DNA of 64,000 bases from Eledone cirrhosa (GCA_964016885.1 OZ024742.1:90458001-90522000); one strand, 5' to 3'; shown: positions 3,488 to 36,830, counted from the stretch's first letter. Made by a program: numbers and translations. The notes: generated by a model from the letters alone, not told the origin.

Positions 3488-4225
3488 TCAAGGAAGCACC
3501 AGAGATGTCGCAGCCACAGCGCGTGTTTGCGCATCATCAGCCACGGCATGCCCAGCCCTCCACGCAACGGGTGTTGACAGCAGATGGAGCGTCTGACCAC
3601 GGGAGCACGTCCCTCCATAAAAAGCGAAAGAGGAGGCACTCTCTTTTGTCAGAGTTGGGCCGGGGCAAGGCACAATGATTAGGTGGTAGCAGATGGCGGA
3701 TGGATCAACGCCTTCGCCACCTCTGGCCGACCTTTCAGGGACAGCTTCCTCTCGGCCCATTTCTGGGCGAGAGAGGCCACCCTGTTCATCACCTCGCTCC
3801 AGTTTTTCTCCATCTGGAGGTCCGGACCGAACCAGACCCCGAGCAATTTAACCGGTCCTTCCGTCCAGTACCCCACGACGCTGTCGGGTGACATGGACTT
3901 GCCCCTCCAGGTGCAGAGCTAACAGCCCACCGACTTTTACTGGTTTAACTTTGCTTCTGTCACTGCTTCATATTCCTTGAGAGCAGTGCCGACCATCTGG
4001 ACGTTTCCGGCGCTTGACAAGGTCCGCTCTGATTATGCGCCTGTAGACTGTGGAGTGGAAAACTGAGAGAGGCCACTTGCCCTGGTGGTCAGGGTGGCCG
4101 TGGTCTTTTGTGTGGTTTTCGCCACGAGTGACCCTCAGAAGTTTCCCCCCTATTGCGGAATTTTTGAATTTTTTGATATTTCTATCTTCTTGTTATAACC
4201 TTTTTACACGGCCAAAACCCACGCT
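3488..4225 (-). mobile_element. Tx1/L1-clade LINE fragment: inverted ORF2 piece (3488-4020, minus) joined to a plus-strand 3'UTR-like piece (4021-4225)
   Basis: The minus strand encodes WTEGPVKLLGVWFGPDLQMEKNW..KLSLKGR and ICCQHPLRGGLGMPWL, homologous to 35350-35720. The start at 4021 resembles the ORF2 end/3'UTR start (..gcctgtaga..). Confidence 0.7.
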
Positions 4226-4499: not shown

Positions 4500-4757
4500 G
4501 CGAAGATAAGACGTCAGCAATGACGTGTTGGTCATAATGTCGTTATGCAGACAGCCAGGCATATAGACAGATATTATAACACCCCTTTAACAACAGAAAA
4601 TTGAAAAATAAAAGCTGCAGTTAATATCTTTAGACCGCAAGGAATATATAAATGCAAGTTTGAAGTCAATCGGAGTAGAAATGTAGATTCGTATAGACTT
4701 TGCAAAAAGCAGGACATACACAGAGACAACAACAGTTTTATATATATATATATATAT

Positions 4758-5502
4758 ATATTGTTATATTTGGGGAGGGTCATATTTGCGTAATATTGCC
4801 AGAATTAATAACAGAACACACTCACTGTTTGGTTGGTTTTCGCTTCTCGCTGTCTTTTATATATATATATCTGCGATCTAACTTACTCGGTCCTCAATGT
4901 TGCCATTGACTGACCGGCGGTCAAAAATAATACAGATACAATATAGACAAACACATATATATATAGTTTACATAAATCTTTCGTTGCACATCTGCAACAT
5001 CGTCAGTGGTGTTATATTCATTGTTCCTCCTGTTGTGTTGTATGTCTACGCCATTTTTTTGTTCAGTCTGTCTATATATTTATTTATTTATTTGCTTGTT
5101 TGTTTATCTTATTTTATTTTGTCTTCTTTGCGCATGTGTTTGCGTGTGTGTATAGTGTTATGTGTGATGTGTGACTAGTGTGTATAGTGTTGTGTCTGCT
5201 GGGTGACTAGTGTGTGTTTATGTGCTTGTGTATGTATTTATTTATCTTATTTTATTTAATTTAATTTACTTATTTATTTATACTTCTCTTAGGTCAGTGT
5301 TGTTTGTTTGGGTGTTGTTGTTGTTCCACTCATTCTTTCTGTTTAGCTTTGGTCTTCTAATTTCTATTTCACTGGCCTCTCTGATTTGCCTATCTGCTGG
5401 GTCATTCCTATGTTTAGATATTATTCTAATTTCTATGTTGTCTATGTTACCGTCATGATGTTGTCTAGCATGTTCGTATAGTTCTGTCCGTATAGTACTG
5501 AC
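4758..5502 (-). repeat. Inverted pseudo-LTR (pLTR) of the PLE
   Basis: Reverse complement of 8057-8781 (end of EN coding region, 3'UTR and first 26 nt of the ORF). One visible SNP at 5137 and a complex junction at 5481-5502. Confidence 0.95.
4969..5014 (-). ncRNA. Hammerhead-like motif (inverted pLTR)
   Basis: Reverse complement of 8525-8570. Confidence 0.65.
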
Positions 5503-8261
5503 AGAACAACAACAACCACAATAATAATAATAATAGAAACGTTAACCACAGACACAGCAACAGTGACCACAGTAGTAATAACAGTAACAATACGAACAAC
5601 AACAACAACAATAACCACAGTGGTAATAATGGAAATAGTACATGTAGCAACATCAACAAAAACAAGAAACATAATAATAGTAACAACCACAATGGTAGAA
5701 ATAGCAGTAACAACAACAATAACGGTGAAGTAAACAACAATACATCTAGCAATCATAACAATAATAATATTAATGCTAAGGATAGAAACAACAACAACCA
5801 CCATGATAACAATAATAGCAACACACACAACTATGACGATAGAAATAACGACAACCCCTTAGAGAAACTATTTTTCAACCCAGCTGACAAAACATATAAG
5901 ATGGGTAATATCTATCCTACGAGGTTACCCTTTAATAAAAGAGTTTGCATACCACAACAAATAGATGACGAGACGGAGGCACAGTTCACCATAGCTAGAA
6001 ATAAGATTAGACAAGTAGTAGACAGGTACACTATGAGACAGAGCAGACCAGAGGCCCAACAACTTGGGATAAAACCTGTAGAAGGCTTGGTTAGCCTCAA
6101 GCAGCGCACAAGGGATGGTGAGGTAGTGTGTCTACCCACAGATAAGTCTGGTAGGATGTCAATAGATAGCATGCCGAACTACATCGAGGCAATGCAACCC
6201 CACATCACCAACACGAGCGAAGTTGCACAACTAACACACGATGGGAGAGAAAAAATCCTCAACGCTCACATGATGATGTGGACTGACATCCTAAAGCCAA
6301 GCAGACGCACTGCCAACAACTTCCAGGCGTCTAACAATGGCATACCACCCTTGTATGGGCTCCGCAAAGACCACAAGACAGTCGACGACCCGACAATAGG
6401 ACCACCAACAAGACCTGTATGCGGAGCTAATATAGCTAGCAACTACAGGATCTCCTACTTCCTCTCAATGGTTATACGCCCCATAATCAAGATGTCCCCA
6501 GATGTATGTGAAAGTACAGAGGACCTCCTCAGCAGAATCAGTGAGTGCAACAAAAACAGGAGCCTATCCAACTGCATAATAGGCAGCATGGATGTGGTGT
6601 CACTGTACCCATCCATTAACATTGATTTTGCTGTGAAAAGATGTGTGGAGATGATCATTGAGAGTGAGGTGGAGTTCTGCGACGTCGACACAGACGAACT
6701 GGGCCTCCTACTTAGACTTACCTACGACACTGACTACCTAGACAGCCATGACCTTAGATGTTTCTGCCCTAGTAGACCTATAAGAGGTAGACCCCCCACC
6801 ATAACCTCAATGGCTAAAAAGACTCCCATAGGAAGGTGGATTGGGTGGACCAAAGCTATACGGACCCCCCAAAACACTGATCAGGTAAGAAAAATGGTCG
6901 CACATGCAATAGGGGCTAGTATCAAAACTACCCTAAAGGGCCACATATTTAAGTTCAATGAGAAAATCTACACCCAAAATGAGGGAGCAGCCATCGGCGT
7001 CAGCATAGCTGGCGATGTTGCCAACCTTTTCATGGTATGGTGGGAAAGGAGACTTAAAGATCTCCTTAATGAAAGCTCCATAGACCTCATCATGTACTCT
7101 CGTTATGTAGACGATATCAATATAGTTATAAGAACACCCCCACTAGAGAGCACTAACAAGTTTGATTTAGAACGTAGCACGATGGAAAGCATCCAGCAGA
7201 TAGCTAATTCCATACACCAGAGTATAACTGTAACTATAGACTTCCCTTCCAAACACCCTAACAATAGACTACCTGTATTAGACACAGAACTCTGGATTAA
7301 CACTATAGACGAGAGAGCCCAAATTCTCCACTCACACTATGCTAAACCCATGGCCTCCAAATACCTGATACTCAAAAACTCAGCAATGTCCAGTAGTGCT
7401 AAGTTTAATATTCTGATCGCAGATTTGGTACGAGTGATGAAGAATGTGTCCAGCATGTGCGACCCAACAGAAATGGAAGGACACATCCAACACTTCATCA
7501 ACCGCATGCAGTTCTCTGGCTACAACCAAAGAGACAGAGTCAGAGTATACGAAGGAGCCATGGAAAAGTATAAGACCCTCATAGAACTGGACATGAAAGG
7601 AATTTGCCCACTATACAGGAGCAAATCATGGAATAGCTTAGATAGGGCTAGACATAAGATAGGGAAGGCCACATCATGGTACGACAACCAGAGATATCAG
7701 AGTGTCATGTTTGTGGACGCCACCCCTGGAGGGAAATTAGCTAACCAGTGTAGAAAGGCCCTGAGAAAGACCCACTTAAAAATAAAGGTGGTAGAAAAGC
7801 CAGGAACCACCATAAAATCCCTGATCAGCAAAACCTACCCTTTTAAGAAAACCCACTGTACCAATAGGAAATGTATCATATGTAAGGTGAACCCCCGGAT
7901 AAACTGTAAAACTAGAAACGTAGTCTATAGCATAAGATGTACAGAGGGTACTTGCAGAAACACGACAACAACATACATAGGTGAGACAGCTCGTAGCATA
8001 GGTGAAAGGATAGACCAACACTGGGGGGAACTAAAAGGACGAAAAAACGGGTCAGTACTATACGAACATGCTAGACAACATCATGACGGTAACATAGACA
8101 ACATAGAAATTAGAATAATATCTAAACATAGGAATGACCCAGCAGATAGGCAAATCAGAGAGGCCAGTGAAATAGAAATTAGAAGACCAAAGCTAAACAG
8201 AAAGAATGAGTGGAACAACAACAACACCCAAACAAACAACACTGACCTAAGAGAAGTATAA
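5500..8261 (+). pseudogene. 5'-truncated PLE ORF copy (RT + GIY-YIG still open; 786 aa from the internal Met at 5901)
   Basis: Matches 9624-12385 except for visible differences at 5583 (A vs G) and 7990 (C vs T; GETARS vs GETVRS). Confidence 0.92.
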
Positions 8262-8524
8262 ATAAATAAGTAAATTAAATTAAATAAAATAAGATAAATA
8301 AATACATACACAAGCACATAAACACACACTAGTCACCCAGCAGACACAACACTATACACACTAGTCACACATCACACATAACACTATACACACACGCAAA
8401 CGCATGCGCAAAGAAGACAAAATAAAATAAGATAAACAAACAAGCAAATAAATAAATAAATATATAGACAGACTGAACAAAAAAATGGCGTAGACATACA
8501 ACACAACAGGAGGAACAATGAATA

Positions 8525-8570
8525 TAACACCACTGACGATGTTGCAGATGTGCAACGAAAGATTTATGTA
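8525..8570 (+). ncRNA. Minimal hammerhead-ribozyme-like motif in the PLE pLTR
   Basis: CTGACGA (8533-8539), T, stem II GTTGCA/gatg/TGCAAC, GAAA (8557-8560), then self-complementary AGATTT and A. Stem I is only ~2 bp (CA/TG). PLE pLTRs are known to carry minimal HHRs. Confidence 0.65.
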
Positions 8571-8625
8571 AACTATATATATATGTGTTTGTCTATATTG
8601 TATCTGTATTATTTTTGACCGCCGG

Positions 8626-8658
8626 TCAGTCAATGGCAACATTGAGGACCGAGTAAGT
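8626..8658 (+). promoter_or_regulatory. Putative PLE initiator (TCAGTC), upstream ATG and 5' splice donor (GA|GTAAGT) in the pLTR
   Basis: TCAGTC at 8626-8631 matches Inr TCAGTY, ATG at 8633, GTAAGT at 8653-8658. PLE pLTRs are known to hold the promoter and often an intron. Confidence 0.4.
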
Positions 8659-8755
8659 TAGATCGCAGATATATATATATAAAAGACAGCGAGAAGCGAA
8701 AACCAACCAAACAGTGAGTGTGTTCTGTTATTAATTCTGGCAATATTACGCAAAT

Positions 8756-11700
8756 ATGACCCTCCCCAAATATAACAATATCTGTTTCGACACACGATTT
8801 CATATAAAAAACCTCGCAAAACTAATTCATCGCCGCTATGGCATTAGCTTGTGCCAAGCTGAAAGGTTATTGAAAGACACTGTTTTCTGTTATATAAAAA
8901 CTACAATAACAACAGAACAAATCCGCTTCTTAAAACACTGTGTTTCCTCCAAAACATACACAACAAACATATCAAAACAAGTAAATAATTTATTATTGAA
9001 CAAAACACAAGCTGAACGGCTAAAACACACAATAACAGTTAATATGAAAAGAACAACATACACAAAAGTCAACGCACTCTACAGACAAAAACGCATCAAC
9101 GGTAAGGAAATCCGAAATCTCATCACAGCAAACGAGAGAGATGACTTCATGAGCGTCATCCGACGCGAAACGAAATATGCTCAAAACGAATGCTGTAGGC
9201 ATTTCAAGAAGAAATTAGAATGGATGAATAAGAAAAAACTACAAGAAAGGAAAATCGAATATTCTCAAAAATACCCAGATAACATCGACAACATCCGTAT
9301 GAGTGATGTAAAACTACCGGAAGAATTTACCAATGACCACACAGTAAATATCTATGGGAACACTTTAATCAGTGAACAAGAACAACAAATCCTAAAGTTA
9401 CCACCAAAATTTGCCATCTACAAAAAGATTAATCCTATGGAATGCAAAACGGAGCTGGAAAAGTGTTTCACAAAAATACGTTGGAATGCAAAGGTAAACA
9501 ACAACAACAATAATAACGGTAGTAGTAATATAAACAATAACTCTGGGTATAGAAATAACAGCCATAACCATAACAATGGCAGGAAAGTGAGAAATAGTGA
9601 TAATGGTAATAATACTAGCGATAGACAGAACAACAACAACCACAATAATAATAATAATAGAAACGTTAACCACAGACACAGCAACAGTGACCACAGTAGT
9701 AATAACGGTAACAATACGAACAACAACAACAACAATAACCACAGTGGTAATAATGGAAATAGTACATGTAGCAACATCAACAAAAACAAGAAACATAATA
9801 ATAGTAACAACCACAATGGTAGAAATAGCAGTAACAACAACAATAACGGTGAAGTAAACAACAATACATCTAGCAATCATAACAATAATAATATTAATGC
9901 TAAGGATAGAAACAACAACAACCACCATGATAACAATAATAGCAACACACACAACTATGACGATAGAAATAACGACAACCCCTTAGAGAAACTATTTTTC
10001 AACCCAGCTGACAAAACATATAAGATGGGTAATATCTATCCTACGAGGTTACCCTTTAATAAAAGAGTTTGCATACCACAACAAATAGATGACGAGACGG
10101 AGGCACAGTTCACCATAGCTAGAAATAAGATTAGACAAGTAGTAGACAGGTACACTATGAGACAGAGCAGACCAGAGGCCCAACAACTTGGGATAAAACC
10201 TGTAGAAGGCTTGGTTAGCCTCAAGCAGCGCACAAGGGATGGTGAGGTAGTGTGTCTACCCACAGATAAGTCTGGTAGGATGTCAATAGATAGCATGCCG
10301 AACTACATCGAGGCAATGCAACCCCACATCACCAACACGAGCGAAGTTGCACAACTAACACACGATGGGAGAGAAAAAATCCTCAACGCTCACATGATGA
10401 TGTGGACTGACATCCTAAAGCCAAGCAGACGCACTGCCAACAACTTCCAGGCGTCTAACAATGGCATACCACCCTTGTATGGGCTCCGCAAAGACCACAA
10501 GACAGTCGACGACCCGACAATAGGACCACCAACAAGACCTGTATGCGGAGCTAATATAGCTAGCAACTACAGGATCTCCTACTTCCTCTCAATGGTTATA
10601 CGCCCCATAATCAAGATGTCCCCAGATGTATGTGAAAGTACAGAGGACCTCCTCAGCAGAATCAGTGAGTGCAACAAAAACAGGAGCCTATCCAACTGCA
10701 TAATAGGCAGCATGGATGTGGTGTCACTGTACCCATCCATTAACATTGATTTTGCTGTGAAAAGATGTGTGGAGATGATCATTGAGAGTGAGGTGGAGTT
10801 CTGCGACGTCGACACAGACGAACTGGGCCTCCTACTTAGACTTACCTACGACACTGACTACCTAGACAGCCATGACCTTAGATGTTTCTGCCCTAGTAGA
10901 CCTATAAGAGGTAGACCCCCCACCATAACCTCAATGGCTAAAAAGACTCCCATAGGAAGGTGGATTGGGTGGACCAAAGCTATACGGACCCCCCAAAACA
11001 CTGATCAGGTAAGAAAAATGGTCGCACATGCAATAGGGGCTAGTATCAAAACTACCCTAAAGGGCCACATATTTAAGTTCAATGAGAAAATCTACACCCA
11101 AAATGAGGGAGCAGCCATCGGCGTCAGCATAGCTGGCGATGTTGCCAACCTTTTCATGGTATGGTGGGAAAGGAGACTTAAAGATCTCCTTAATGAAAGC
11201 TCCATAGACCTCATCATGTACTCTCGTTATGTAGACGATATCAATATAGTTATAAGAACACCCCCACTAGAGAGCACTAACAAGTTTGATTTAGAACGTA
11301 GCACGATGGAAAGCATCCAGCAGATAGCTAATTCCATACACCAGAGTATAACTGTAACTATAGACTTCCCTTCCAAACACCCTAACAATAGACTACCTGT
11401 ATTAGACACAGAACTCTGGATTAACACTATAGACGAGAGAGCCCAAATTCTCCACTCACACTATGCTAAACCCATGGCCTCCAAATACCTGATACTCAAA
11501 AACTCAGCAATGTCCAGTAGTGCTAAGTTTAATATTCTGATCGCAGATTTGGTACGAGTGATGAAGAATGTGTCCAGCATGTGCGACCCAACAGAAATGG
11601 AAGGACACATCCAACACTTCATCAACCGCATGCAGTTCTCTGGCTACAACCAAAGAGACAGAGTCAGAGTATACGAAGGAGCCATGGAAAAGTATAAGAC

Positions 11701-12385
11701 CCTCATAGAACTGGACATGAAAGGAATTTGCCCACTATACAGGAGCAAATCATGGAATAGCTTAGATAGGGCTAGACATAAGATAGGGAAGGCCACATCA
11801 TGGTACGACAACCAGAGATATCAGAGTGTCATGTTTGTGGACGCCACCCCTGGAGGGAAATTAGCTAACCAGTGTAGAAAGGCCCTGAGAAAGACCCACT
11901 TAAAAATAAAGGTGGTAGAAAAGCCAGGAACCACCATAAAATCCCTGATCAGCAAAACCTACCCTTTTAAGAAAACCCACTGTACCAATAGGAAATGTAT
12001 CATATGTAAGGTGAACCCCCGGATAAACTGTAAAACTAGAAACGTAGTCTATAGCATAAGATGTACAGAGGGTACTTGCAGAAACACGACAACAACATAC
12101 ATAGGTGAGACAGTTCGTAGCATAGGTGAAAGGATAGACCAACACTGGGGGGAACTAAAAGGACGAAAAAACGGGTCAGTACTATACGAACATGCTAGAC
12201 AACATCATGACGGTAACATAGACAACATAGAAATTAGAATAATATCTAAACATAGGAATGACCCAGCAGATAGGCAAATCAGAGAGGCCAGTGAAATAGA
12301 AATTAGAAGACCAAAGCTAAACAGAAAGAATGAGTGGAACAACAACAACACCCAAACAAACAACACTGACCTAAGAGAAGTATAA
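8756..12385 (+). CDS. PLE polyprotein, 1209 aa: N-terminal domain with Asn-rich insert, reverse transcriptase, Cys-rich linker, C-terminal GIY-YIG endonuclease
   Basis: Motifs TDKSG, PPLYGLRKDHK, RPV, SMDVVSLYPSI, YTQNEGAAIG, RYVDD, LPVLD; linker CTNRKCIIC; endonuclease NVVYSIRC..YIGET.RS..ER..QH..E..I..P.LN. The ORF is uninterrupted. Confidence 0.95.
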   Translation: MTLPKYNNICFDTRFHIKNLAKLIHRRYGISLCQAERLLKDTVFCYIKTTITTEQIRFLKHCVSSKTYTTNISKQVNNLLLNKTQAERLKHTITVNMKRTTYTKVNALYRQKRINGKEIRNLITANERDDFMSVIRRETKYAQNECCRHFKKKLEWMNKKKLQERKIEYSQKYPDNIDNIRMSDVKLPEEFTNDHTVNIYGNTLISEQEQQILKLPPKFAIYKKINPMECKTELEKCFTKIRWNAKVNNNNNNNGSSNINNNSGYRNNSHNHNNGRKVRNSDNGNNTSDRQNNNNHNNNNNRNVNHRHSNSDHSSNNGNNTNNNNNNNHSGNNGNSTCSNINKNKKHNNSNNHNGRNSSNNNNNGEVNNNTSSNHNNNNINAKDRNNNNHHDNNNSNTHNYDDRNNDNPLEKLFFNPADKTYKMGNIYPTRLPFNKRVCIPQQIDDETEAQFTIARNKIRQVVDRYTMRQSRPEAQQLGIKPVEGLVSLKQRTRDGEVVCLPTDKSGRMSIDSMPNYIEAMQPHITNTSEVAQLTHDGREKILNAHMMMWTDILKPSRRTANNFQASNNGIPPLYGLRKDHKTVDDPTIGPPTRPVCGANIASNYRISYFLSMVIRPIIKMSPDVCESTEDLLSRISECNKNRSLSNCIIGSMDVVSLYPSINIDFAVKRCVEMIIESEVEFCDVDTDELGLLLRLTYDTDYLDSHDLRCFCPSRPIRGRPPTITSMAKKTPIGRWIGWTKAIRTPQNTDQVRKMVAHAIGASIKTTLKGHIFKFNEKIYTQNEGAAIGVSIAGDVANLFMVWWERRLKDLLNESSIDLIMYSRYVDDINIVIRTPPLESTNKFDLERSTMESIQQIANSIHQSITVTIDFPSKHPNNRLPVLDTELWINTIDERAQILHSHYAKPMASKYLILKNSAMSSSAKFNILIADLVRVMKNVSSMCDPTEMEGHIQHFINRMQFSGYNQRDRVRVYEGAMEKYKTLIELDMKGICPLYRSKSWNSLDRARHKIGKATSWYDNQRYQSVMFVDATPGGKLANQCRKALRKTHLKIKVVEKPGTTIKSLISKTYPFKKTHCTNRKCIICKVNPRINCKTRNVVYSIRCTEGTCRNTTTTYIGETVRSIGERIDQHWGELKGRKNGSVLYEHARQHHDGNIDNIEIRIISKHRNDPADRQIREASEIEIRRPKLNRKNEWNNNNTQTNNTDLREV

Positions 12386-12648
12386 ATAAATAAGTAAATT
12401 AAATTAAATAAAATAAGATAAATAAATACATACACAAGCACATAAACACACACTAGTCACCCAGCAGACACAACACTATACACACTAGTCACACATCACA
12501 CATAACACTATACACACACGCAAACGCATGCGCAAAGAAGACAAAATAAAATAAGATAAACAAACAAGCAAATAAATAAATAAATATATAGACAGACTGA
12601 ACAAAAAAATGGCGTAGACATACAACACAACAGGAGGAACAATGAATA

Positions 12649-12694
12649 TAACACCACTGACGATGTTGCAGATGTGCAACGAAAGATTTATGTA
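12649..12694 (+). ncRNA. Hammerhead-like motif (second pLTR)
   Basis: Same sequence as 8525-8570, offset +4124. Confidence 0.65.
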
Positions 12695-12879
12695 AACTAT
12701 ATATATATGTGTTTGTCTATATTGTATCTGTATTATTTTTGACCGCCGGTCAGTCAATGGCAACATTGAGGACCGAGTAAGTTAGATCGCAGATATATAT
12801 ATATAAAAGACAGCGAGAAGCGAAAACCAACCAAACAGTGAGTGTGTTCTGTTATTAATTCTGGCAATATTACGCAAAT

Positions 12880-15800
12880 ATGACCCTCCCCAAATATAAC
12901 AATATCTGTTTCGACACACGATTTCATATAAAAAACCTCGCAAAACTAATTCATCGCCGCTATGGCATTAGCTTGTGCCAAGCTGAAAGGTTATTGAAAG
13001 ACACTGTTTTCTGTTATATAAAAACTACAATAACAACAGAACAAATCCGCTTCTTAAAACACTGTGTTTCCTCCAAAACATACACAACAAACATATCAAA
13101 ACAAGTAAATAATTTATTATTGAACAAAACACAAGCTGAACGGCTAAAACACACAATAACAGTTAATATGAAAAGAACAACATACACAAAAGTCAACGCA
13201 CTCTACAGACAAAAACGCATCAACGGTAAGGAAATCCGAAATCTCATCACAGCAAACGAGAGAGATGACTTCATGAGCGTCATCCGACGCGAAACGAAAT
13301 ATGCTCAAAACGAATGCTGTAGGCATTTCAAGAAGAAATTAGAATGGATGAATAAGAAAAAACTACAAGAAAGGAAAATCGAATATTCTCAAAAATACCC
13401 AGATAACATCGACAACATCCGTATGAGTGATGTAAAACTACCGGAAGAATTTACCAATGACCACACAGTAAATATCTATGGGAACACTTTAATCAGTGAA
13501 CAAGAACAACAAATCCTAAAGTTACCACCAAAATTTGCCATCTACAAAAAGATTAATCCTATGGAATGCAAAACGGAGCTGGAAAAGTGTTTCACAAAAA
13601 TACGTTGGAATGCAAAGGTAAACAACAACAACAATAATAACGGTAGTAGTAATATAAACAATAACTCTGGGTATAGAAATAACAGCCATAACCATAACAA
13701 TGGCAGGAAAGTGAGAAATAGTGATAATGGTAATAATACTAGCGATAGACAGAACAACAACAACCACAATAATAATAATAATAGAAACGTTAACCACAGA
13801 CACAGCAACAGTGACCACAGTAGTAATAACGGTAACAATACGAACAACAACAACAACAATAACCACAGTGGTAATAATGGAAATAGTACATGTAGCAACA
13901 TCAACAAAAACAAGAAACATAATAATAGTAACAACCACAATGGTAGAAATAGCAGTAACAACAACAATAACGGTGAAGTAAACAACAATACATCTAGCAA
14001 TCATAACAATAATAATATTAATGCTAAGGATAGAAACAACAACAACCACCATGATAACAATAATAGCAACACACACAACTATGACGATAGAAATAACGAC
14101 AACCCCTTAGAGAAACTATTTTTCAACCCAGCTGACAAAACATATAAGATGGGTAATATCTATCCTACGAGGTTACCCTTTAATAAAAGAGTTTGCATAC
14201 CACAACAAATAGATGACGAGACGGAGGCACAGTTCACCATAGCTAGAAATAAGATTAGACAAGTAGTAGACAGGTACACTATGAGACAGAGCAGACCAGA
14301 GGCCCAACAACTTGGGATAAAACCTGTAGAAGGCTTGGTTAGCCTCAAGCAGCGCACAAGGGATGGTGAGGTAGTGTGTCTACCCACAGATAAGTCTGGT
14401 AGGATGTCAATAGATAGCATGCCGAACTACATCGAGGCAATGCAACCCCACATCACCAACACGAGCGAAGTTGCACAACTAACACACGATGGGAGAGAAA
14501 AAATCCTCAACGCTCACATGATGATGTGGACTGACATCCTAAAGCCAAGCAGACGCACTGCCAACAACTTCCAGGCGTCTAACAATGGCATACCACCCTT
14601 GTATGGGCTCCGCAAAGACCACAAGACAGTCGACGACCCGACAATAGGACCACCAACAAGACCTGTATGCGGAGCTAATATAGCTAGCAACTACAGGATC
14701 TCCTACTTCCTCTCAATGGTTATACGCCCCATAATCAAGATGTCCCCAGATGTATGTGAAAGTACAGAGGACCTCCTCAGCAGAATCAGTGAGTGCAACA
14801 AAAACAGGAGCCTATCCAACTGCATAATAGGCAGCATGGATGTGGTGTCACTGTACCCATCCATTAACATTGATTTTGCTGTGAAAAGATGTGTGGAGAT
14901 GATCATTGAGAGTGAGGTGGAGTTCTGCGACGTCGACACAGACGAACTGGGCCTCCTACTTAGACTTACCTACGACACTGACTACCTAGACAGCCATGAC
15001 CTTAGATGTTTCTGCCCTAGTAGACCTATAAGAGGTAGACCCCCCACCATAACCTCAATGGCTAAAAAGACTCCCATAGGAAGGTGGATTGGGTGGACCA
15101 AAGCTATACGGACCCCCCAAAACACTGATCAGGTAAGAAAAATGGTCGCACATGCAATAGGGGCTAGTATCAAAACTACCCTAAAGGGCCACATATTTAA
15201 GTTCAATGAGAAAATCTACACCCAAAATGAGGGAGCAGCCATCGGCGTCAGCATAGCTGGCGATGTTGCCAACCTTTTCATGGTATGGTGGGAAAGGAGA
15301 CTTAAAGATCTCCTTAATGAAAGCTCCATAGACCTCATCATGTACTCTCGTTATGTAGACGATATCAATATAGTTATAAGAACACCCCCACTAGAGAGCA
15401 CTAACAAGTTTGATTTAGAACGTAGCACGATGGAAAGCATCCAGCAGATAGCTAATTCCATACACCAGAGTATAACTGTAACTATAGACTTCCCTTCCAA
15501 ACACCCTAACAATAGACTACCTGTATTAGACACAGAACTCTGGATTAACACTATAGACGAGAGAGCCCAAATTCTCCACTCACACTATGCTAAACCCATG
15601 GCCTCCAAATACCTGATACTCAAAAACTCAGCAATGTCCAGTAGTGCTAAGTTTAATATTCTGATCGCAGATTTGGTACGAGTGATGAAGAATGTGTCCA
15701 GCATGTGCGACCCAACAGAAATGGAAGGACACATCCAACACTTCATCAACCGCATGCAGTTCTCTGGCTACAACCAAAGAGACAGAGTCAGAGTATACGA

Positions 15801-16509
15801 AGGAGCCATGGAAAAGTATAAGACCCTCATAGAACTGGACATGAAAGGAATTTGCCCACTATACAGGAGCAAATCATGGAATAGCTTAGATAGGGCTAGA
15901 CATAAGATAGGGAAGGCCACATCATGGTACGACAACCAGAGATATCAGAGTGTCATGTTTGTGGACGCCACCCCTGGAGGGAAATTAGCTAACCAGTGTA
16001 GAAAGGCCCTGAGAAAGACCCACTTAAAAATAAAGGTGGTAGAAAAGCCAGGAACCACCATAAAATCCCTGATCAGCAAAACCTACCCTTTTAAGAAAAC
16101 CCACTGTACCAATAGGAAATGTATCATATGTAAGGTGAACCCCCGGATAAACTGTAAAACTAGAAACGTAGTCTATAGCATAAGATGTACAGAGGGTACT
16201 TGCAGAAACACGACAACAACATACATAGGTGAGACAGTTCGTAGCATAGGTGAAAGGATAGACCAACACTGGGGGGAACTAAAAGGACGAAAAAACGGGT
16301 CAGTACTATACGAACATGCTAGACAACATCATGACGGTAACATAGACAACATAGAAATTAGAATAATATCTAAACATAGGAATGACCCAGCAGATAGGCA
16401 AATCAGAGAGGCCAGTGAAATAGAAATTAGAAGACCAAAGCTAAACAGAAAGAATGAGTGGAACAACAACAACACCCAAACAAACAACACTGACCTAAGA
16501 GAAGTATAA
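12880..16509 (+). CDS. PLE polyprotein, 1209 aa (second intact copy)
   Basis: Translation is the same as 8756..12385, offset by exactly 4124 bp. Confidence 0.95.
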   Translation: MTLPKYNNICFDTRFHIKNLAKLIHRRYGISLCQAERLLKDTVFCYIKTTITTEQIRFLKHCVSSKTYTTNISKQVNNLLLNKTQAERLKHTITVNMKRTTYTKVNALYRQKRINGKEIRNLITANERDDFMSVIRRETKYAQNECCRHFKKKLEWMNKKKLQERKIEYSQKYPDNIDNIRMSDVKLPEEFTNDHTVNIYGNTLISEQEQQILKLPPKFAIYKKINPMECKTELEKCFTKIRWNAKVNNNNNNNGSSNINNNSGYRNNSHNHNNGRKVRNSDNGNNTSDRQNNNNHNNNNNRNVNHRHSNSDHSSNNGNNTNNNNNNNHSGNNGNSTCSNINKNKKHNNSNNHNGRNSSNNNNNGEVNNNTSSNHNNNNINAKDRNNNNHHDNNNSNTHNYDDRNNDNPLEKLFFNPADKTYKMGNIYPTRLPFNKRVCIPQQIDDETEAQFTIARNKIRQVVDRYTMRQSRPEAQQLGIKPVEGLVSLKQRTRDGEVVCLPTDKSGRMSIDSMPNYIEAMQPHITNTSEVAQLTHDGREKILNAHMMMWTDILKPSRRTANNFQASNNGIPPLYGLRKDHKTVDDPTIGPPTRPVCGANIASNYRISYFLSMVIRPIIKMSPDVCESTEDLLSRISECNKNRSLSNCIIGSMDVVSLYPSINIDFAVKRCVEMIIESEVEFCDVDTDELGLLLRLTYDTDYLDSHDLRCFCPSRPIRGRPPTITSMAKKTPIGRWIGWTKAIRTPQNTDQVRKMVAHAIGASIKTTLKGHIFKFNEKIYTQNEGAAIGVSIAGDVANLFMVWWERRLKDLLNESSIDLIMYSRYVDDINIVIRTPPLESTNKFDLERSTMESIQQIANSIHQSITVTIDFPSKHPNNRLPVLDTELWINTIDERAQILHSHYAKPMASKYLILKNSAMSSSAKFNILIADLVRVMKNVSSMCDPTEMEGHIQHFINRMQFSGYNQRDRVRVYEGAMEKYKTLIELDMKGICPLYRSKSWNSLDRARHKIGKATSWYDNQRYQSVMFVDATPGGKLANQCRKALRKTHLKIKVVEKPGTTIKSLISKTYPFKKTHCTNRKCIICKVNPRINCKTRNVVYSIRCTEGTCRNTTTTYIGETVRSIGERIDQHWGELKGRKNGSVLYEHARQHHDGNIDNIEIRIISKHRNDPADRQIREASEIEIRRPKLNRKNEWNNNNTQTNNTDLREV

Positions 16510-16772
16510 ATAAATAAGTAAATTAAATTAAATAAAATAAGATAAATAAATACATACACAAGCACATAAACACACACTAGTCACCCAGCAGACACAACAC
16601 TATACACACTAGTCACACATCACACATAACACTATACACACACGCAAACGCATGCGCAAAGAAGACAAAATAAAATAAGATAAACAAACAAGCAAATAAA
16701 TAAATAAATATATAGACAGACTGAACAAAAAAATGGCGTAGACATACAACACAACAGGAGGAACAATGAATA

Positions 16773-16818
16773 TAACACCACTGACGATGTTGCAGATGTG
16801 CAACGAAAGATTTATGTA
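16773..16818 (+). ncRNA. Hammerhead-like motif (terminal pLTR)
   Basis: Same sequence as 8525-8570, offset +8248. Confidence 0.65.
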
Positions 16819-17067
16819 AACTATATATATATGTGTTTGTCTATATTGTATCTGTATTATTTTTGACCGCCGGTCAGTCAATGGCAACATTGAGGACCGA
16901 GTAAGTTAGATCGCAGATATATATATATAAAAGACAGCGAGAAGCGAAAACCAACCAAACAGTGAGTGTGTTCTGTTATTAATTCTGGCAATATTACGCA
17001 AATATGACCCTCCCCAAATATAACAATATCTGTTTCGACACACGATTTCATATAAAAAACCTCGCAA

Positions 17068-17111
<44 letters not shown>

Positions 17112-17114
<3 letters not shown>

Positions 17115-27751: not shown

Positions 27752-27830
<79 letters not shown>

Positions 27831-27832
<2 letters not shown>

Positions 27833-28440
27833 ATACAGTGCCCGGGCGTCACTGACCTGTGGGGCTATGTAGAACGACTATTGTCGAGGGTGGGACCAAT
27901 CCAGTTGACCACCGAGTCCATTGTCATGATCAAACCGCCACCCTCCTTCAAAAACGAAGGAGAGGCGGTTTTCCTTTGTGTGATAGCTATGGCGAAAGAG
28001 GTTGTATGGTGGACAAGGTTGAAAGGGCTGAGGTCAGACACCTTTCTCTCCGGCCAACAACTGATTCTTTTTTTCAAATACCACTTTGGAAGAAGAATCA
28101 GGATGGAGAGAGAGGTGCTGTACCCCAGCAAGTTTTATGAAAGGTGGGTGAAAGTGGCGAGAATGGCCCGAGTGAATGGGCCTTCTCTCTATATCAGCCT
28201 GTAGATTGAGGAAAAGGAGGAGGAGAGGAAAGGAGTACAAGCTCTTCGTACTCCTGGAGATGAGGGTTGCACATTTTTTTCGGGGGTATGTGTTACCCAT
28301 ATAAACTGTCTCCCTCTATTGGGGAAAATCGACTAACTTTTAAATTCCATCTGTGATAACATTTTACACGTTTTTATTGTATGTAAACTTTCCCCTTTGT
28401 ATTTGTCCCCTTCTTTTGTGCCCCTGTGGCTAATAAAGAA

Positions 28441-28441
<1 letters not shown>
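27831..28441 (+). mobile_element. Tx1/L1-clade LINE, 5'-truncated copy A, flanked by (TATC)n
   Basis: Encodes the ORF2 C-terminus (..KFYERWVKVARM..) and a 3'UTR ending gtggctAATAAAgaaa. (TATC)n at 27745-27832 and 28442-28479. Confidence 0.9.
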
Positions 28442-28477
<36 letters not shown>

Positions 28478-28479
<2 letters not shown>

Positions 28480-29087
28480 ATACAGTGCCCGGGCGTCACT
28501 GACCTGTGGGGCTATGTAGAACGACTATTGTCGAGGGTGGGACCAATCCAGTTGACCACCGAGTCCATTGTCATGATCAAACCGCCACCCTCCTTCAAAA
28601 ACGAAGGAGAGGCGGTTTTCCTTTGTGTGATAGCTATGGCGAAAGAGGTTGTATGGTGGACAAGGTTGAAAGGGCTGAGGTCAGACACCTTTCTCTCCGG
28701 CCAACAACTGATTCTTTTTTTCAAATACCACTTTGGAAGAAGAATCAGGATGGAGAGAGAGGTGCTGTACCCCAGCAAGTTTTATGAAAGGTGGGTGAAA
28801 GTGGCGAGAATGGCCCGAGTGAATGGGCCTTCTCTCTATATCAGCCTGTAGATTGAGGAAAAGGAGGAGGAGAGGAAAGGAGTACAAGCTCTTCGTACTC
28901 CTGGAGATGAGGGTTGCACATTTTTTTCGGGGGTATGTGTTACCCATATAAACTGTCTCCCTCTATTGGGGAAAATCGACTAACTTTTAAATTCCATCTG
29001 TGATAACATTTTACACGTTTTTATTGTATGTAAACTTCCCCCTTTGTATTTGTCCCCTTCTTTTGTGCCCCTGTGGCTAATAAAGAC

Positions 29088-29088
<1 letters not shown>
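28478..29088 (+). mobile_element. Tx1/L1-clade LINE, 5'-truncated copy B
   Basis: Near-identical to copy A (+647) with the same 5' breakpoint tcatacagtgcccggg. Confidence 0.9.
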
Positions 29089-29140
<52 letters not shown>

Positions 29141-29142
<2 letters not shown>

Positions 29143-29750
29143 ATACAGTGCCCGGGCGTCACTGACCCGTGGGGCTATGTAGAACGACTATTGTCGAGGG
29201 TGGGACCAATCCAGTTGACCACCGAGTCCATTGTCATGATCAAACCGCCACCCTCCTTCAAAAACGAAGGAGAGGCGGTTTTCCTTTGTGTGATAGCTAT
29301 GGCGAAAGAGGTTGTATGGTGGACAAGGTTGAAAGGGCTGAGGTCAGACACCTTTCTCTCCGGCCAACAATTGATTCTTTTTTTCAAATACCACTTTGGA
29401 AGAAGAATCAGGATGGAGAGAGGTGCTGTACCCCAGCAAGTTTTATGAAAGGTGGGTGAAAGTGGCGAGAATGGCCCGAGTGAATGGGCCTTCTCTCTAT
29501 ATCAGCCTGTAGGTTGAGGAAAAGGAGGAGGAGAGGAAAGGAGTACAAACTCTTCGTACTCCTGGAGATGAGGGTTGCACATGTTTTTCGGGGGTATGTG
29601 TTACCCATATAAACTGTCTCCCTCTATTGGGGAAAATCGATTAACTTTTTAAATTGCATTTGTGATAACATTTTACACGTTTTTATTGTATGTAAACTTC
29701 CCCCTTTGTATTTGTCCCCTTCTTTTGTGCCCCTGTGGCTAATAAAGAAA
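29141..29750 (+). mobile_element. Tx1/L1-clade LINE, 5'-truncated copy C
   Basis: Same 5' breakpoint as A and B; a few SNPs and a 2-bp deletion in a (GA)n run. Confidence 0.9.
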
Positions 29751-29780
29751 TCTATCTATCTATCTATCTATATATCTATA

Positions 29781-31325
29781 GTAATGGTGTCGAGCACCTC
29801 GCAAATCGGGGAGTTCGGCACCTTACTGAAGGAATACGAAAGGTTCACAGGAGCGAAGCTGAACCGGGACAAATCCGTCGGTTTGCAACTCGGAACGTGG
29901 AGAGGCAAACCGATGCCTTCCGATGGCGTCGTCGGACGCTGGACGGAAGGACCGGTAAAGCTGCTCGGAGTCTGGTTTGGTCCGGACCTTCAGGTGGAGG
30001 AGAATTGGAACGAGCTGACGGCCAAGGTGTTTGCACTCACCCAGGAGTGGGCCGAGTGCAAACTATCCTTGAAAGGTCGAGCAGAGGTGGCGAACACTTT
30101 TATAGCATACGTCATCTACTACCGCTTGACCGTCGTGCCTTGTCCAGCCAAAACGCTCACCAAAATGGAGCACGCGCTCTTCCAATTCCTTTGTAAGAAA
30201 CGGGCTCCTTTGGTGAGAAGATCCATCTGCTGCCAACACCCTTCAAACGGAGGGCTGGAGATGCCGTGGCTGACGATGTGCAAACACGCGCTCAGGCTGC
30301 GGCACCTCCACGTATTCCTCACCAGACAACCGGTGTGGGCCCCGTTCGTGAAGCGAGCCTTCCCACGACTCGTCTCGCTGACCGAGCTGCAGTCCTGGGT
30401 CAAGCAAAGACCGAGGAAAATGAGCGACTGGGACATCGAATGTGCTCAGGCGCTCACAGTCCTCTGGAAAACGGACCCGGCGATCAGTGGAGACTCCACT
30501 TCGACGCTCGGAGAAACTCTAGGCGTAGAAGAGGACGAACTGGCCAGTCTGTTCGGAAGGACCTTCCGCCCGGGACCAATGGACAACTTCCAAAAGTCCC
30601 TAGCCTGGCAGTGCTACCGAGGAGCTCTACTAGTTCGACACAAGCTCTACAGACACGGGCGCCCGGGTAGGGACCCTTCGAAAAAGATCTGCCCGAGATG
30701 CGTGCGCGACGAGGAAACCGTCGCGCACGCATTTGTACACTGCCCGGGCGGTACCGACCTGTGGGGCTATGTAGAACGACTATTGTCGCGGGTGAGACCA
30801 ATCCGGTTGACCACCGAGTCCATTGTCATGATCAAACCGCCACCCTCCTTCAAAAACGAGGGAGAAGCGGTTTTCCTGTGTTATGGCTATGGTGAAAGAG
30901 GTTATATAGTGGACGAGGTTAAAAGGGCTGAGGTCAGACACCTTTCTCTCCGGCGAGCAACTGATTCGTTTTTTCAAATATAATTTTGGAAGAAGAATCA
31001 GGATGGAGAGAGAGGTGCTGTACTTCAGCAAATTTTATAAAAGGTGGGTGAATGTGGCAAAGATGGCCCGAGTGGTTGGGTCTTCTCTCTATATAAGCCT
31101 GTAGGTTGAGGAAAAAGAGGAAGAGAGTACTCACTCTTTGTGCTCCTGGAGATGAGCGTTGTACATTTTTTCGGAGTGTGTACAACCCCTGTGTAACACC
31201 TCCCCCCTATTGGGGATATCAATTGTTATTTCTTATTTTATTAATAGTTTTATTTTCATATACCTCTATGTAAACCCCCATTTGTATTTGTCCCCTTTTT
31301 GTGCCCTTATGGCTAATAAATAAAT
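29781..31325 (+). mobile_element. Tx1/L1-clade LINE, 5'-truncated copy D (~1.5 kb)
   Basis: Starts just after the RT YVDD motif, encodes LLGVWFG, GGLEMP and CPRC..ETVAHAFVHC, and has a more diverged 3'UTR ending ggctaataaa. Confidence 0.9.
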
Positions 31326-31350
31326 TTATCTATCTATCTATCTATCTAAC

Positions 31351-33097
31351 ATGGAAAATTTGAACAACACCAACGAGAACAACAACAACAACAACAACAA
31401 TAATAACAACAAGAACAACATCAACAACAATGATAACAACAAAACCACCACCAACAACAGCAACACAAACAACTCCACAAACAAGGAAAAGATTTCCTTT
31501 GCACAAACCGTCCAAAAGACGGAAATATTTACATATCTTGACATCTCCAATGCTAGGGAGTTGTTAAGAGAAGCAAAGCAATATGTAACCTTTGGTGAGA
31601 GTGGTGCTTTCACATCACTTCTCCTCAACAGTTACGTAGAGAAACTATCCTAAAAACAATAATTTTTAGGACAGTTTCAAATCCGTCTAAAAAACCAGTG
31701 CAATTATCCCAAAACGAAATTGAACTGGTTCTGAAGAATTCAATGAAGGATATTGCCTTCATCCAAAAAGGATGCATTTCGGTGCTGATGAAAGACCAAT
31801 TGACGGCACAAAAATATTCTGCGTCGCCAATTGTGTCCCCCCTTAACACCTTTTTCCCCAAATATATGGGAAAAAGAACCCAGAAAATTAAAATTTCAAA
31901 CATTACACCAAACGTAAACGTCTGGTGGATTTTGACTGACCTCATCGATTTCGATGAAGACACCATAATTTCACTGGGAAAGTCCTCGAGAGGCACATTC
32001 AATGGTACAAGCCTGGAAGTTCTGGTCCAAATGAGGCCAGAACGGATAGCTAAAGTACCCCAACGTGTGCCTCTGGATGGGAATTCATACATAAACAGTT
32101 CTGTTGAGGGTAGGCGGCCTTCATGTTACCACTGTTTAAGCAGTGGTCACCTGAAGGCTTACTGTCCTCAGCTAGCTGCAAGAAAAAAAGAGGCACTACT
32201 GCCAACACCCAAAACAACAACACAACCACCACCACCACCACCACCACCACCACCACCACCACCACCACCACCACCACCACCACCACCACCACAACAACAA
32301 CAACAAACAAACATAACCAAAACAAGAACAAACCAGACCGCAAGCACAGTCCCACCCAACCCCACTCTACCTAAAACCACTGCAAAAACACCCACAAACA
32401 CAACAGCTCCCCAAAACATACCCCTTCCAAATAACACAGACACCACAACGGACGAGGCCCCCCTCATCATCACCAAGTGACGATTAGGGAGAGCCTCTCC
32501 GTTCGAAAAGAAAGAAGAAAAAACACCACAAGAACAAAAAAACCAACAAACATCACTACAAACATACAACCACCAACACAAACAACACAAACATTACAAA
32601 CAAAAACCCCCCGTCCCGGAAACAAAACCACGACATCACTCCAAACACAAACACCTACAACAAAACGAAAGCTTACACAAGAACAACAGACAAAAACCAA
32701 CACAACACAAGAACATTACACATACATAAACAGTGAAAACAAAACTTTAATGGAGGTTATCTCCAACGACCCTTCGGTGAAAACCGAAGGGAAAACTTTT
32801 TCGAACTGTGTAGACAGACCCAATTTAAAGATGATTAGGGTCCCTACGGACATCTATAAGTCTTTAAAGAAAAACTTTCCTAAGGACGTGGGTAATCCTT
32901 GCGTTAAACCCATTAACCGCGTCCTTTTAAAATGTTTCCTCACCCTCACCCCAGACACCCCCACCACAAACACCCCCACCCCACCAGATACCTCCTCCCC
33001 ACCAAACATCTCCGTCCCCACCCCGCCAGAAACCACCACTCCAACACCCCCATGGACATTGTGCAGCCTGGTCTTCAGGAAGCGAAGAGGTGAGTGA
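31351..33097 (+). pseudogene. LINE ORF1 (gag-like, CCHC zinc knuckle; poly-Asn, poly-Pro and Thr-rich tracts), frameshifted
   Basis: Pieces 31351-31653, 31698-32480 (VEGRRPSCYHCLSSGHLKAYC) and 32477-33097. Confidence 0.8.
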
Positions 33098-33134
33098 ATT
33101 CTTTCCTCTTCTTTTCTAACTCTTCCCCACCGAC

Positions 33135-36100
33135 ATGGTAAATGTAAGAGACGGTTGTGTGAATGTGCGCCGCCTGGGGATGCCCTGGAAACAGGGCAAA
33201 CTCTTCAACAACCTCAGGTCGCACAGTATGGATGTAATTGCCATCTGCGAGTCCAGGATCCACAGCAAGCGACAGCTGGCTCCCATGTTCGATGACTATG
33301 ATATCTACGCATCTCTATGTCAGCCGAGAGGTGGGGGCGGGGTTGCCATTTTTCTGAGGAAACACCTGGGCCTCGTAACACAAACGGTACATCTGGATCC
33401 GGAGGGTCGACTGGTGGTCCTAGACGTTGACGATAGTGAAGGTGGAGCCTTCAGGCTGGTGGCCGCATATGCCCCATCCGGGACTCCGCGGCCAGACTTC
33501 TTCAAACGTCTAGAGACTTTTCTGGGAACGTCCTGCTTCTTTCTTTTAGTGGGGGACTGGAATGGAATCCTAGATGCACGTTGGGACTATGTGGGAGCAT
33601 GTCCCGATAAAGAGGGTTTTAACACTCAAACAGTTAATCGGACGATTTGACCTGGCCAATAAATATCGACTAGATTTTCCGACTGTGCCACTGTGGACGA
33701 GGACTAATCTCAGCAGAACATCTAGATCGTACTTAGATGGTTCTAGTTAGAAATAAGGATAGGGAAATGTTAAGCTGTTCACAAATGTTCATGGTTGCCT
33801 ATTCAGATCACAAACTAGTGACCTGCATGGTCAACCTTGATAGAACCCATAGACAGGGACCCGGCTACTGGAAGCTGAACTTGTCGTTACCGACATACAA
33901 AGCCTACAGTAGAAGGATTAGCACTTTAGGTAAACAGCACTTGACAGGGGCCATTGTCAACAACAGATGGTGGTACTCTCTCAAGAGGGCAGTTAGATTA
34001 GACTCGTTAGTTTTAGTAAAGAATTAACGTTAGATAGCAATAGGACTGAGAAGGAACTGGTAGATAAAGTAGAAGAGGCAATTAGAAGTGGCAACGTAGC
34101 CAGCGTGCTAGCGACGAGAACGGCCTTGGACCAGTTCTTCGAAGCAAAGCCCGAGGGCTGCGTTGTTAGAAGCAAAATTCGTGCTCTGGGTAACGAGGGA
34201 GCCAAGGCTGTTAGCTGGGCCCGAGTGACGGAGGTGAAAAATGGCAACAAGTTCACGATTCGGTCTTTGAGGGACCAAGACGGACGCGTGATACGTGAGC
34301 CGAAGCAGATGTGCGCGGCCTTTCAGCGGCACTTTACTCAACTGTTCGGGCAGGGCGGCGCGCCGGGAGGGGCTATGGATTTCGGTCCATACCTCGACGG
34401 CCTGCTGCGACTCTTGGACAGAGAGGCGAAGTTCTGCGAAAGGCCGATTTCGGCTGCTGAGATAGGGGACGCGGCAAACGCAAATCTCCAGGTCTCGACG
34501 GTCTACCCTACGAATTTTACGTAGCAATGCCGGACTTGTTCTCTGTCCTCCTGGAAGCGGTCTACTGAAACTGGAAGCAGAACGGGAGAATTCCCAGTTC
34601 TGTGACCAAGGGCGTAGTCACGTTAGTCAGGAGGGAAGAGAATAAGGGGGATGACAAGGGCAACTTCCGGCCCATAACTCTGCTAAACACAGAGTTACAG
34701 ATTTTGGCCAAAGTATTGGCAAAGAGGCTGGCGCTTGTCGTCAAAAACCTGGTGGGAGAAGCGCAGACATGCGCAATCCCGACCAGGTCCATACACAACA
34801 ACCTCCACCTCATGCAATACATCGTAGAGAGGGTAGGGTGTAAAACCGGCTTCGGTGGGGCCCTGATCAACTTGAATCAGTCTAAGACTTTCGATAGGGT
34901 TGACTATCGTTACCTGGATGCGGTGCTCGAGGTGGCAGGCTTCGGACCCGGGTTCAGGGGCTGGATGGCTGCAATGCACAGCAGCAACATCTGCTCAAGG
35001 GTCAAGGTGAACGGCTACCTCTCGGAGCCGTTCCATATTACGCGATCCATCCGACAGGGATGCCCTCTCTCCTCCCTTCTGTACGTACTGACTCTCGAGC
35101 TACTACTGCAGAAGTTGGAGCTATTGCAGGGCATCCCTCTGGAATCGGGACTGCGGAAAGTGGCATCGGCCTACGTCGACGACGTGACAGTAATGGTGTC
35201 GAGCACCTTGCAGATCGAGGAAGTCGGCACCTTACTGAAGGAATACGAAAGGTTCACAGGAGCGAAGCTGAACCGGGACAAGTCCATCGGTTTGCAACTC
35301 GGATCGTGGAGAGGCAAACCGTTGCCTTCCGATGGCGTCGTCGGACGCTGGACGGAAGGACCGGTAAAGCTGCTCGGGGTCTGGTTTGGTCCGGACCTCC
35401 AGGTGGAGGAGAATTGGAACGAGCTGACGGCCAAGGTGTTTGCACTCACCCAGGAGTGGGCCGAGTGCAAACTATCCTTGAAAGGTCGAGCGGAGGTGGC
35501 GAACACTTTTATAGCGTCCGTCATCTACTACCACTTGACCGTCGTGCCTTGTTCAGCCAAAACGCTCACCAAAATGGAGCACGCGCTCTTCCAATTCCTT
35601 TGGAAAAAGTGGGCTCCTTTGGTGAGAAGATCCATCTGCTGCCAACACCCTTCCAACGAAGGGCTGGGGATGCCGTGGCTGACGATGCGCAAACACGCGC
35701 TCAGGCTGCGGCACCTCCACGTATTCCTCACCGGACAACAGGTGTGGGCCCCGTTCGTGAGCTGCAGTCCTGGGTCAAGCAAAGACCGAGGAAAATGGGT
35801 GACTGGCACATCGAATGTGCTCAGGCGTTCACAGCCCTCTGGCAGGCGGACCCGGCGATCAGTGGAGACTCCACTTCGACATTCTATAGAGGGTTGGTCC
35901 GCAGCAAGTGCGACGACGCGCTCGTAGAAACTCGTAGGCGTAGAGGAAGACGAACTGGCCAGTCTGTTCGGTAGGACCTTCCGCCCGCGACCGATGGACA
36001 ACTTCCAAAAGTCCCTGGCCTGGAAGTGGTACCGAGGAGCTCTACCAGTTCGAGACAAGCTCTACAGACACGGGCGCCCAGGTAGGGACCCTTCGAAAAA

Positions 36101-36521: not shown

Positions 36522-36759
36522 GTTGAGGAAAAAGAGGAAGAGAGGAAGTGGGTACTCATTCTTCGTACTCCTGGAGATGAGGGTTGCACATTTTTTCGGG
36601 GGTATGTGTTACCCATACGTAATGTCTTCCCCTATTGGGGAAAATCGATTGATTTTTAAATTGCATTTGTGATAGTATTTTACACGTTTTTATTGTATGA
36701 AAACTTCCCCCTTTGTATTTGTCCCCTTCTTTTGTGCCCCTGTGGCTAATAAAGAAACA

Positions 36760-36804
<45 letters not shown>

Positions 36805-36830
36805 CTCTATTCCCCCCCACCTCTCTCTCT

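Follow-up and report, generated by a model that had tools for sequence, protein, structure and literature searches.

A 64,000-nt stretch of the Eledone cirrhosa genome (GCA_964016885.1 OZ024742.1:90458001-90522000; hereafter the window, with coordinates counted from its first letter) carries a multi-unit insertion of a Penelope-like element (PLE), which its sequence motifs place among the Neptune-like (Neptune/Nematis-type) Penelope retrotransposons. We find that insertions of this family have paired outer ends, that arm lengths follow a single exponential, and that the units within an arm are homogeneous and seamlessly joined. It is likely that a unit is re-copied during reverse transcription, either by way of a circle or by homology-guided jumping. 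The element itself belongs to a known kind; the value of the locus lies in the family census and its bearing on Penelope tandem regeneration. The family is young, numerous and fully assembled, and its insertions thus serve as a natural experiment on how Penelope rebuilds its upstream repeat.

The insertion comprises two arms joined head to head

The features of the insertion are as follows, with outer-end sites numbered from the open reading frame (ORF).

4739..4757, no strand: left half of the (TA)n target
4758..5482, minus strand: inverted arm (short complementary DNA, cDNA), ending on the outside at the +26 start site; private change at 5137
4973..5006, minus strand: hammerhead-like motif within the inverted arm
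5481..5502, no strand: head-to-head junction with templated insert
5500..8824, plus strand: unit 1, lacking its 5' part, 0.81 unit; bears a private A at 5583 and the ancestral C at 7990
8533..8566, plus strand: hammerhead-like motif, predicted to cut after 8566; recurs at 12657-12690 and 16781-16814
8781..8839, plus strand: three outer-end sites, putative reverse transcriptase (RT) starts, at +26 (8781), +69 (8824) and ~+84 (8839), recurring every 4124 bp
8825..12948, plus strand: unit 2, complete; derived T at 12114
12949..17072, plus strand: unit 3, complete, equal to unit 2 in sequence, with the derived T at 16238; its outer end lies at the +69 site
17073..17112, no strand: right half of the (TA)n target

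The direct arm (5500-17072) spans 11,573 bp, or 2.806 units, without a single indel. The exact 4124-bp period and the roughly 2.8 units proposed by a sequence-only reading of the window are therefore upheld, as is its 5'-truncated third copy, which corresponds to unit 1 and its 786-amino-acid (aa) ORF remnant. (TA)n runs lie at both outer ends (4739-4760 and 17071-17112), as that reading had described; the single split target that it proposed is a putative interpretation of these runs. Reduced-representation reads and contigs placed on the locus yielded neither an empty site nor a unit count. The inverted arm carries one substitution (5137), and its true end is at 5482. It had been described as a single inverted pseudo-long terminal repeat (pLTR). 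An inverted arm is indeed present, but we prefer to read it as a second cDNA, a short one that was probably primed on the opposite side of the same break.

The junction between the arms is templated. Positions 5481-5502 hold 8 nt from the 5' tip of the direct arm, then 14 nt re-copied from the tip of the inverted arm, and the junction closes with a 3-nt shared end. This indicates that both arm tips were present at joining. We take this to be polymerase-theta-like end joining.

Arm lengths follow a single exponential

Exact matches of a 3' motif number 5069 across the genome; for a 5'-ORF motif there are 382, of which 100 were listed. A first-round sample comprised 30 unselected arms. Ninety-six exact matches of a youngest-subfamily marker, all listed, yielded 83 arms of at least 0.75 unit, every one recovered whole. 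Copies that seemed to measure exactly one unit and a further 50 bp were rejected, being splits in the search output and not real ends.

Tabulating units per locus, a check suggested with the sequence-only reading, shows that the window locus is not unique. Its direct arm is the longest among the 83 young arms, 12 of which hold at least two marker copies, and long arms at other loci reach 3.12, 2.68, 2.45 (with an inverted partner of 1.65), ~2.36 and 2.0 units. A single exponential fits the 83 lengths (Kolmogorov-Smirnov p 0.42, simulated p 0.20), and under it the expected number of arms as long as that of the window is 0.67. The window locus thus sits in the tail of a young family as one of its ordinary members, and its length is not exceptional.

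Arms cross the unit boundary without a detectable change in stopping. The stop rate is 0.61 per kb before the first boundary and 0.49 per kb after it (p 0.36; 76 arms, at least 99% identity). Of 38 arms, all run past both the upstream hammerhead cut and a candidate initiator, and none has its end 20 nt or less from either. On the next pass, one of six arms ends near the hammerhead cut and none of six at the candidate start. The candidate start is a guess, based on TCAGT, which we presume to be an initiator motif.

Units within an arm share their variants

Homogeneity was assessed in 37 young multi-unit arms whose units overlap by 300 nt or more, excluding A-run lengths and arm tips. Variants common to all overlapping units number 90, against 30 that are discordant. 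A new mutation arises in one unit, so its presence in all units implies that this unit was re-copied. Eleven shared variants, from six arms, are absent from all the others of 109 loci examined (at least 97% identity). Thirteen different sets of shared variants are found among the 14 arms that reach 1.6 units, or 11 once differences due only to coverage are merged. A 7-nt insertion is present in every covering unit of 23 of 24 arms and in the 3' unit alone of the remaining one, a 1.28-unit locus.

Internal junctions are nearly seamless, with one indel of at least 3 nt in total across 43 of them. This fits a ligated circle or homology-guided transfer, and not rough end-to-end jumps. Together with the lineage variants shared by the units of an arm, it suggests that one unit is likely to have been re-copied.

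Two loci deserve separate description. The 1.28-unit locus with the 7-nt insertion in its 3' unit only (L178, C3:172485453-172490751) may be the founder of the largest young lineage or a chimera of two templates. In the 3.12-unit arm (L031-L033, C1:14.38 Mb), the full units, three in number, all carry the same one-base frameshift: three copies of one defective unit.

These data bear on a published alternative, in which arms copy linear read-through transcripts of existing multi-unit masters and DNA-level duplication renews the arrays (PMC11167929). Multi-unit loci do exist, DNA-level amplification is seen in this genome, and one haploid assembly may miss masters. However, two upstream promoters, as a linear template past ~1.05 units would require, occur in only 6 of 38 competent loci. 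All 38 arms pass this point, against 16% of loci able to template them (p 3e-31, a value that ignores non-independence among arms). In 17 of the 38 competent loci the end is at +26, so that their transcript would include the +69/+84 sites at no place but near its 5' end. Six young arms exceed 2.05 units, yet none of the 83 reaches the 3.05 units needed to template them. The ~11 separate haplotypes, each with a homogeneous long arm, also speak against such masters, and whole-unit crossover cannot yield arms of 1.1-1.9 units. A linear parent is absent from the assembly for 28 of 38 long arms, a count weakened by missing masters, as discussed below. We regard this alternative as quite improbable. 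An intact ORF lies behind a pLTR in 33 of the 38 long young arms.

Outer ends are paired

Ends adjoining (TA)n cluster at three sites, with 1948 exact matches at +26, 800 at +69 and 1099 at ~+84. The counts balance genome-wide: 1948 for +26 against 1899 for the other two together. Raw DNA read depth drops past 8823-8840, in agreement with the outer-end sites.

The same balance is seen within single insertions. We examined 116 head-to-head junctions (at least 88% identity), of which 95 had both outer ends at TA; setting aside seven with one end elsewhere left 88. In 86 of these 88 two-armed insertions, +26 is paired with +69 or +84 (p 1e-23). The +26 arm is the longer one in 39 of the 86. The window insertion obeys the same pairing, its inverted arm ending at +26 and its direct arm at +69. 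A head-to-head partner was found for 65 of the 83 young arms. Among 66 head-to-head junctions, 42 overlap by 1-22 nt, 22 carry inserts and two are blunt.

Related observations have been published. A Penelope protein cuts and extends both strands in vitro, starting at two internal sites, and the tail has been linked to two RT starts with extension of both strands (PMC11167929). The tail is frequently at a single end (PMC8557442). A counted start-site pairing rule was not found in the literature searched, although the supplements of these two papers and older reviews may describe pairing or long tandems.

A possible mechanism

The RT likely copies an effectively endless template. The best candidate for it, at about even chances, is a unit-length RNA circle produced by predicted hammerhead cleavage and ligation. 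Under this scheme, the endonuclease would break both strands of a TA tract, and a cDNA would be primed from either broken end, at +26 of the ORF in one case and at +69 or +84 in the other. Each cDNA would run to a random stop, at ~0.57 stops per kb, crossing the unit boundary if it got that far, and the two 5' tips would be joined head to head by microhomology-type end joining. At the window locus an extra step would be needed: either the RT moved to a second RNA molecule for the final round, or duplication or conversion took place later at the DNA level. The scheme thus combines putative double-strand priming, a putative RNA circle and presumed ribozyme activity.

The fullest form of this idea is that an autonomous animal retrotransposon reverse-transcribes, in rolling-circle fashion, a 4.1-kb RNA circle made by a ribozyme, with a putative asymmetric protein dimer priming both break ends at two different fixed sites of that one RNA. 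We put this forward tentatively, at somewhat less than even probability. If true, one rolling-circle cycle would account for pseudo-LTRs and inverted repeats as well as for one-sided tails and multi-unit arrays, and would homogenise every new mutation across all units.

The hammerhead-like motif, which the sequence-only reading had placed once per unit, does recur in this way, at 8533, 12657 and 16781, with an extra minus-strand motif at 5006. It has a type I core (CUGACGA/GAAA) and a 6-bp helix II with paired changes in related families; the numbering was set by eye from the description in PMC4209133. Folding of the whole region gave no significance (z 0.62).

Several observations weigh against the circle. 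An Rfam search did not detect the hammerhead, and its predicted helix I is only 2 bp long. In the system of PMC11167929, hammerhead cleavage is dispensable in vitro, no RNA-seq ends fall at the cut site, and a multi-copy linear mRNA template is proposed; Naiads make the same structures without canonical hammerheads (PMC8557442). Arms shorter than ~200 nt are in excess family-wide (unit positions 3926-4074). A change-point for these short arms fits nearly equally well by position and by length, that is, as a wall near the candidate start or as early abortion. Arms share masters and so are not independent. A one-unit parent is also absent for 19 of the 38 long arms, and such missing masters weaken the count of 28 without a linear parent.

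An unlikely but more substantial alternative than multi-unit masters is a linear, terminally redundant RNA, on which the RT repeatedly transfers by homology from the 5' end to the 3' repeat in a retrovirus-like or DRT2-like manner. Such strand transfer, if efficient, would give the same seamless, homogeneous and memoryless arms. It permits switching between RNA molecules, which would explain the window locus and the arm at C3:172.49 Mb, and the surplus of short arms may mark failed first transfers. It does not need the hammerhead, which was not required in vitro (PMC11167929), and cycling on linear RNA has been demonstrated for DRT2 (PMC12039810). Against it, the second and third passes proceed without extra stops at the candidate start (the 0/38 and 0/6 above), which would require an efficiency of 91% or more for transfer. 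The near-equal change-points tell against transfer as well, as do the conservation of the hammerhead and the conjectural nature of the candidate start site.

History of the window locus

The three differences noted in the sequence-only reading (5137, 5583 and 7990) are confirmed, but they are not equivalent. Within the direct arm, units differ at 5583 and 7990 only, and units 2 and 3 are identical over 4124 bp. The C at 7990 in unit 1 is the base of every covering arm among the first 30 loci and is thus ancestral, whereas units 2 and 3 carry T (12114 and 16238). The derived T has 21 other exact matches, in 20 loci with older backgrounds that are 72-99% identical. All 20 were fetched, and none is a daughter carrying the derived T; 12 other loci carrying the unit-1 base were likewise fetched, and all are of older background. 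The suggestion that the locus could be an active master copy is therefore not borne out, as no daughter with the marker base was found.

The derived base is also a point against the simplest form of the circle. Errors would be independent in each round on one circle, so a T common to units 2 and 3 requires a template switch or a later DNA duplication or conversion. It is not given by one pass round one circle. This is the sole such case among six discordant sites in eight triple-covered arms. The array at C1:181.3 Mb shows a similar pattern, outside these counts because its alignment splits at a deletion, and counts in the same direction. So does L241 (C1:42149100-42150900), which is a DNA-level tandem amplification, real in this genome.

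At L241, a small two-armed insertion (72 + 175 nt) is present four times with TA tracts between the copies. At C1:181.30 Mb (L036-L037), every pLTR of the ~2.4-unit direct arm carries one and the same microhomology deletion, which the 1.06-unit inverted arm lacks, and one base is common to the inverted arm and the first unit only.

Repeated copying of a unit-length RNA or template jumping, as first proposed for this locus, is therefore supported by family-level lengths, homogeneity and junctions, far better than the single locus would allow, but the locus itself does not fit a single circle pass, and the circle idea had already been published. We lean only slightly towards all 2.8 units having been made at insertion. 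There is a real but smaller chance that a 1.8-unit insertion had a full unit later duplicated by unequal crossover, or the base spread by gene conversion; this concerns the locus only and does not conflict with the family model. In its favour, units 2 and 3 are identical over their full length and share a base private to the locus on a young background, two independent identical changes are very unlikely (~4e-5), and tandem DNA-level copies occur at another locus. On the other side, a length of 2.8 units needs no special cause, units are identical apart from the A-run in other young arrays too, and the crossover would be confined to the last 834 bp of a 3325-bp overlap.

It is highly improbable that the third unit is an assembly artefact. 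Its exact identity with unit 2 would allow this. However, the locus sits inside a 379-Mb contig, unit 1 is distinguishable from units 2 and 3, and the private alleles of the locus occur on no second contig. The young arms with two or more marker copies, moreover, all fall on one smooth length law.

Encoded protein and classification

The coding features of the direct arm are listed below.

5901..8261, plus strand: ORF remnant of 786 aa in unit 1
8756..12385, plus strand: intact ORF of 1209 aa, with an N-terminal domain, Asn-rich block, telomerase-like RT, CX4CxxC linker and GIY-YIG endonuclease
9485..9991, plus strand: Asn-rich in-frame block, aa 244-412, 49% Asn, preceding the RT
12880..16509, plus strand: second intact ORF of 1209 aa, identical to the first

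The two intact ORFs noted in the sequence-only reading are thus confirmed. The predicted RT fold is confident (predicted local distance difference test 90), and its six best Foldseek matches are all telomerases. The RT motifs DKSG, DVVSLYPS and YVDD are present, with a weak RVT_1 match, and motifs A and B are separated by 128 aa. A profile search with Pfam missed the full-length protein, and a search of PDB sequences gave no significant match. The closest protein match, named Octopus vulgaris by its source, is 69% identical. The Asn-rich block is partly kept in this closest homolog and missing from most others; rotifer Penelopes carry Asn-rich inserts (PMC3846280).

GIY-YIG motifs lie C-terminally in the RT ORF (VYSIRC...YIGET, then R, E and N). 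The core residues Y676, C680, Y692 and G694 are invariant across 77 sequences. Pfam GIY-YIG matches five of 45 aligned proteins, the query protein not being among them. The linker CTNRKCIIC (CX4CxxC) is at aa 1076, and two Cys in the GIY-YIG core with a His downstream form a CCHH motif. Features of endonuclease-positive (EN+) Penelope-like elements are present: partial tandems (pLTR), an inverted 5'-truncated copy and a tail at one end. By the motifs listed in PMC8557442, we assign the element to the Neptune-like type.

Other memberships were rejected. Naiad/Chlamys elements require an N-terminal endonuclease, and the endonuclease motifs here are at aa 1098-1190. The Hydra clade has DKT, CxCX5C, no CCHH and less than 3 kb, against DKSG, CX4CxxC and 4.1 kb here. 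Non-LTR retrozymes are short non-coding units, whereas this unit encodes a 1209-aa protein.

Other repeats in the window

At 27778-29779, a ~650-bp unit is present three times in tandem after an (ATCT)n run; LINE-like copies at 36148-36810 and 42404-43054 match it at their 3' end. Two decayed LINE-like elements occupy 29780-36810, with remnants of endonuclease, RT and zf-RVT. A 29-bp minisatellite lies at 41031-41246 (7.4 near-identical copies).

Comparison with known systems

The census argues against linear multi-copy templates, yields a processivity figure and reveals near-strict start-site pairing. It also gives exact predictions for the cut site, the circle size and two start sites per event. 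Earlier work provides the context: the available text of PMC2377424 states that no mechanism is evident by which pseudo-LTRs are regenerated, PMC4209133 proposed circular templates for more-than-unit copying in 2014, and PMC6765202 calls PLEs 'tandem or multi-copy'.

The element is most like the Neptune/Nematis EN+ PLEs as described in PMC8557442. These share a single ORF with RT followed by a C-terminal GIY-YIG, a CX2-5CxxC linker, partial tandems, an inverted 5'-truncated copy and microsatellite targets. Their tail is 30-40 bp and often at one end, whereas the tails here are 43 and ~58 bp. In the comparison with that account, arms of up to 2.8 units (3.1 elsewhere in the genome), three outer-end sites, a counted pairing (86/88), 128 aa between RT motifs A and B and the Asn-rich block are seen only here.

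Poseidon of Anolis carolinensis (PAc; PMC11167929) likewise uses an AT-rich target, with both strands cut and extended and with internal RT starts in the 5' part of the ORF that match genomic ends. Its start site is described without a strand difference, whereas here the two arms use different sites, and its hammerhead spans the ATG, while ours is 190 nt upstream of it. A multi-copy linear mRNA was proposed for PAc; the arm lengths here argue against such templates. Penelope of Drosophila virilis also has a full copy behind a variably truncated copy, and inverted repeats; both a length law and a haplotype test are given here, neither being part of the available text (PMC2377424). Its hammerhead is atypical like the one here, with a 2-bp helix I and a short palindromic helix III (PMC4209133).

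Non-LTR retrozymes have tandem units with one type I hammerhead each, and circular RNA has been proposed as the template of their tandem cDNA (PMC7229834; 10.64898/2026.07.22.740005). Their units are non-coding and 170-400 nt long, with circles shown experimentally, whereas the unit here is a 4.1-kb autonomous coding one with a putative circle. The bacterial defence RT DRT2 also makes concatemeric cDNA off one RNA template (PMC12039810). It does so by a programmed jump on a short linear non-coding RNA and without integration, and is thus a mechanistic analogue only.

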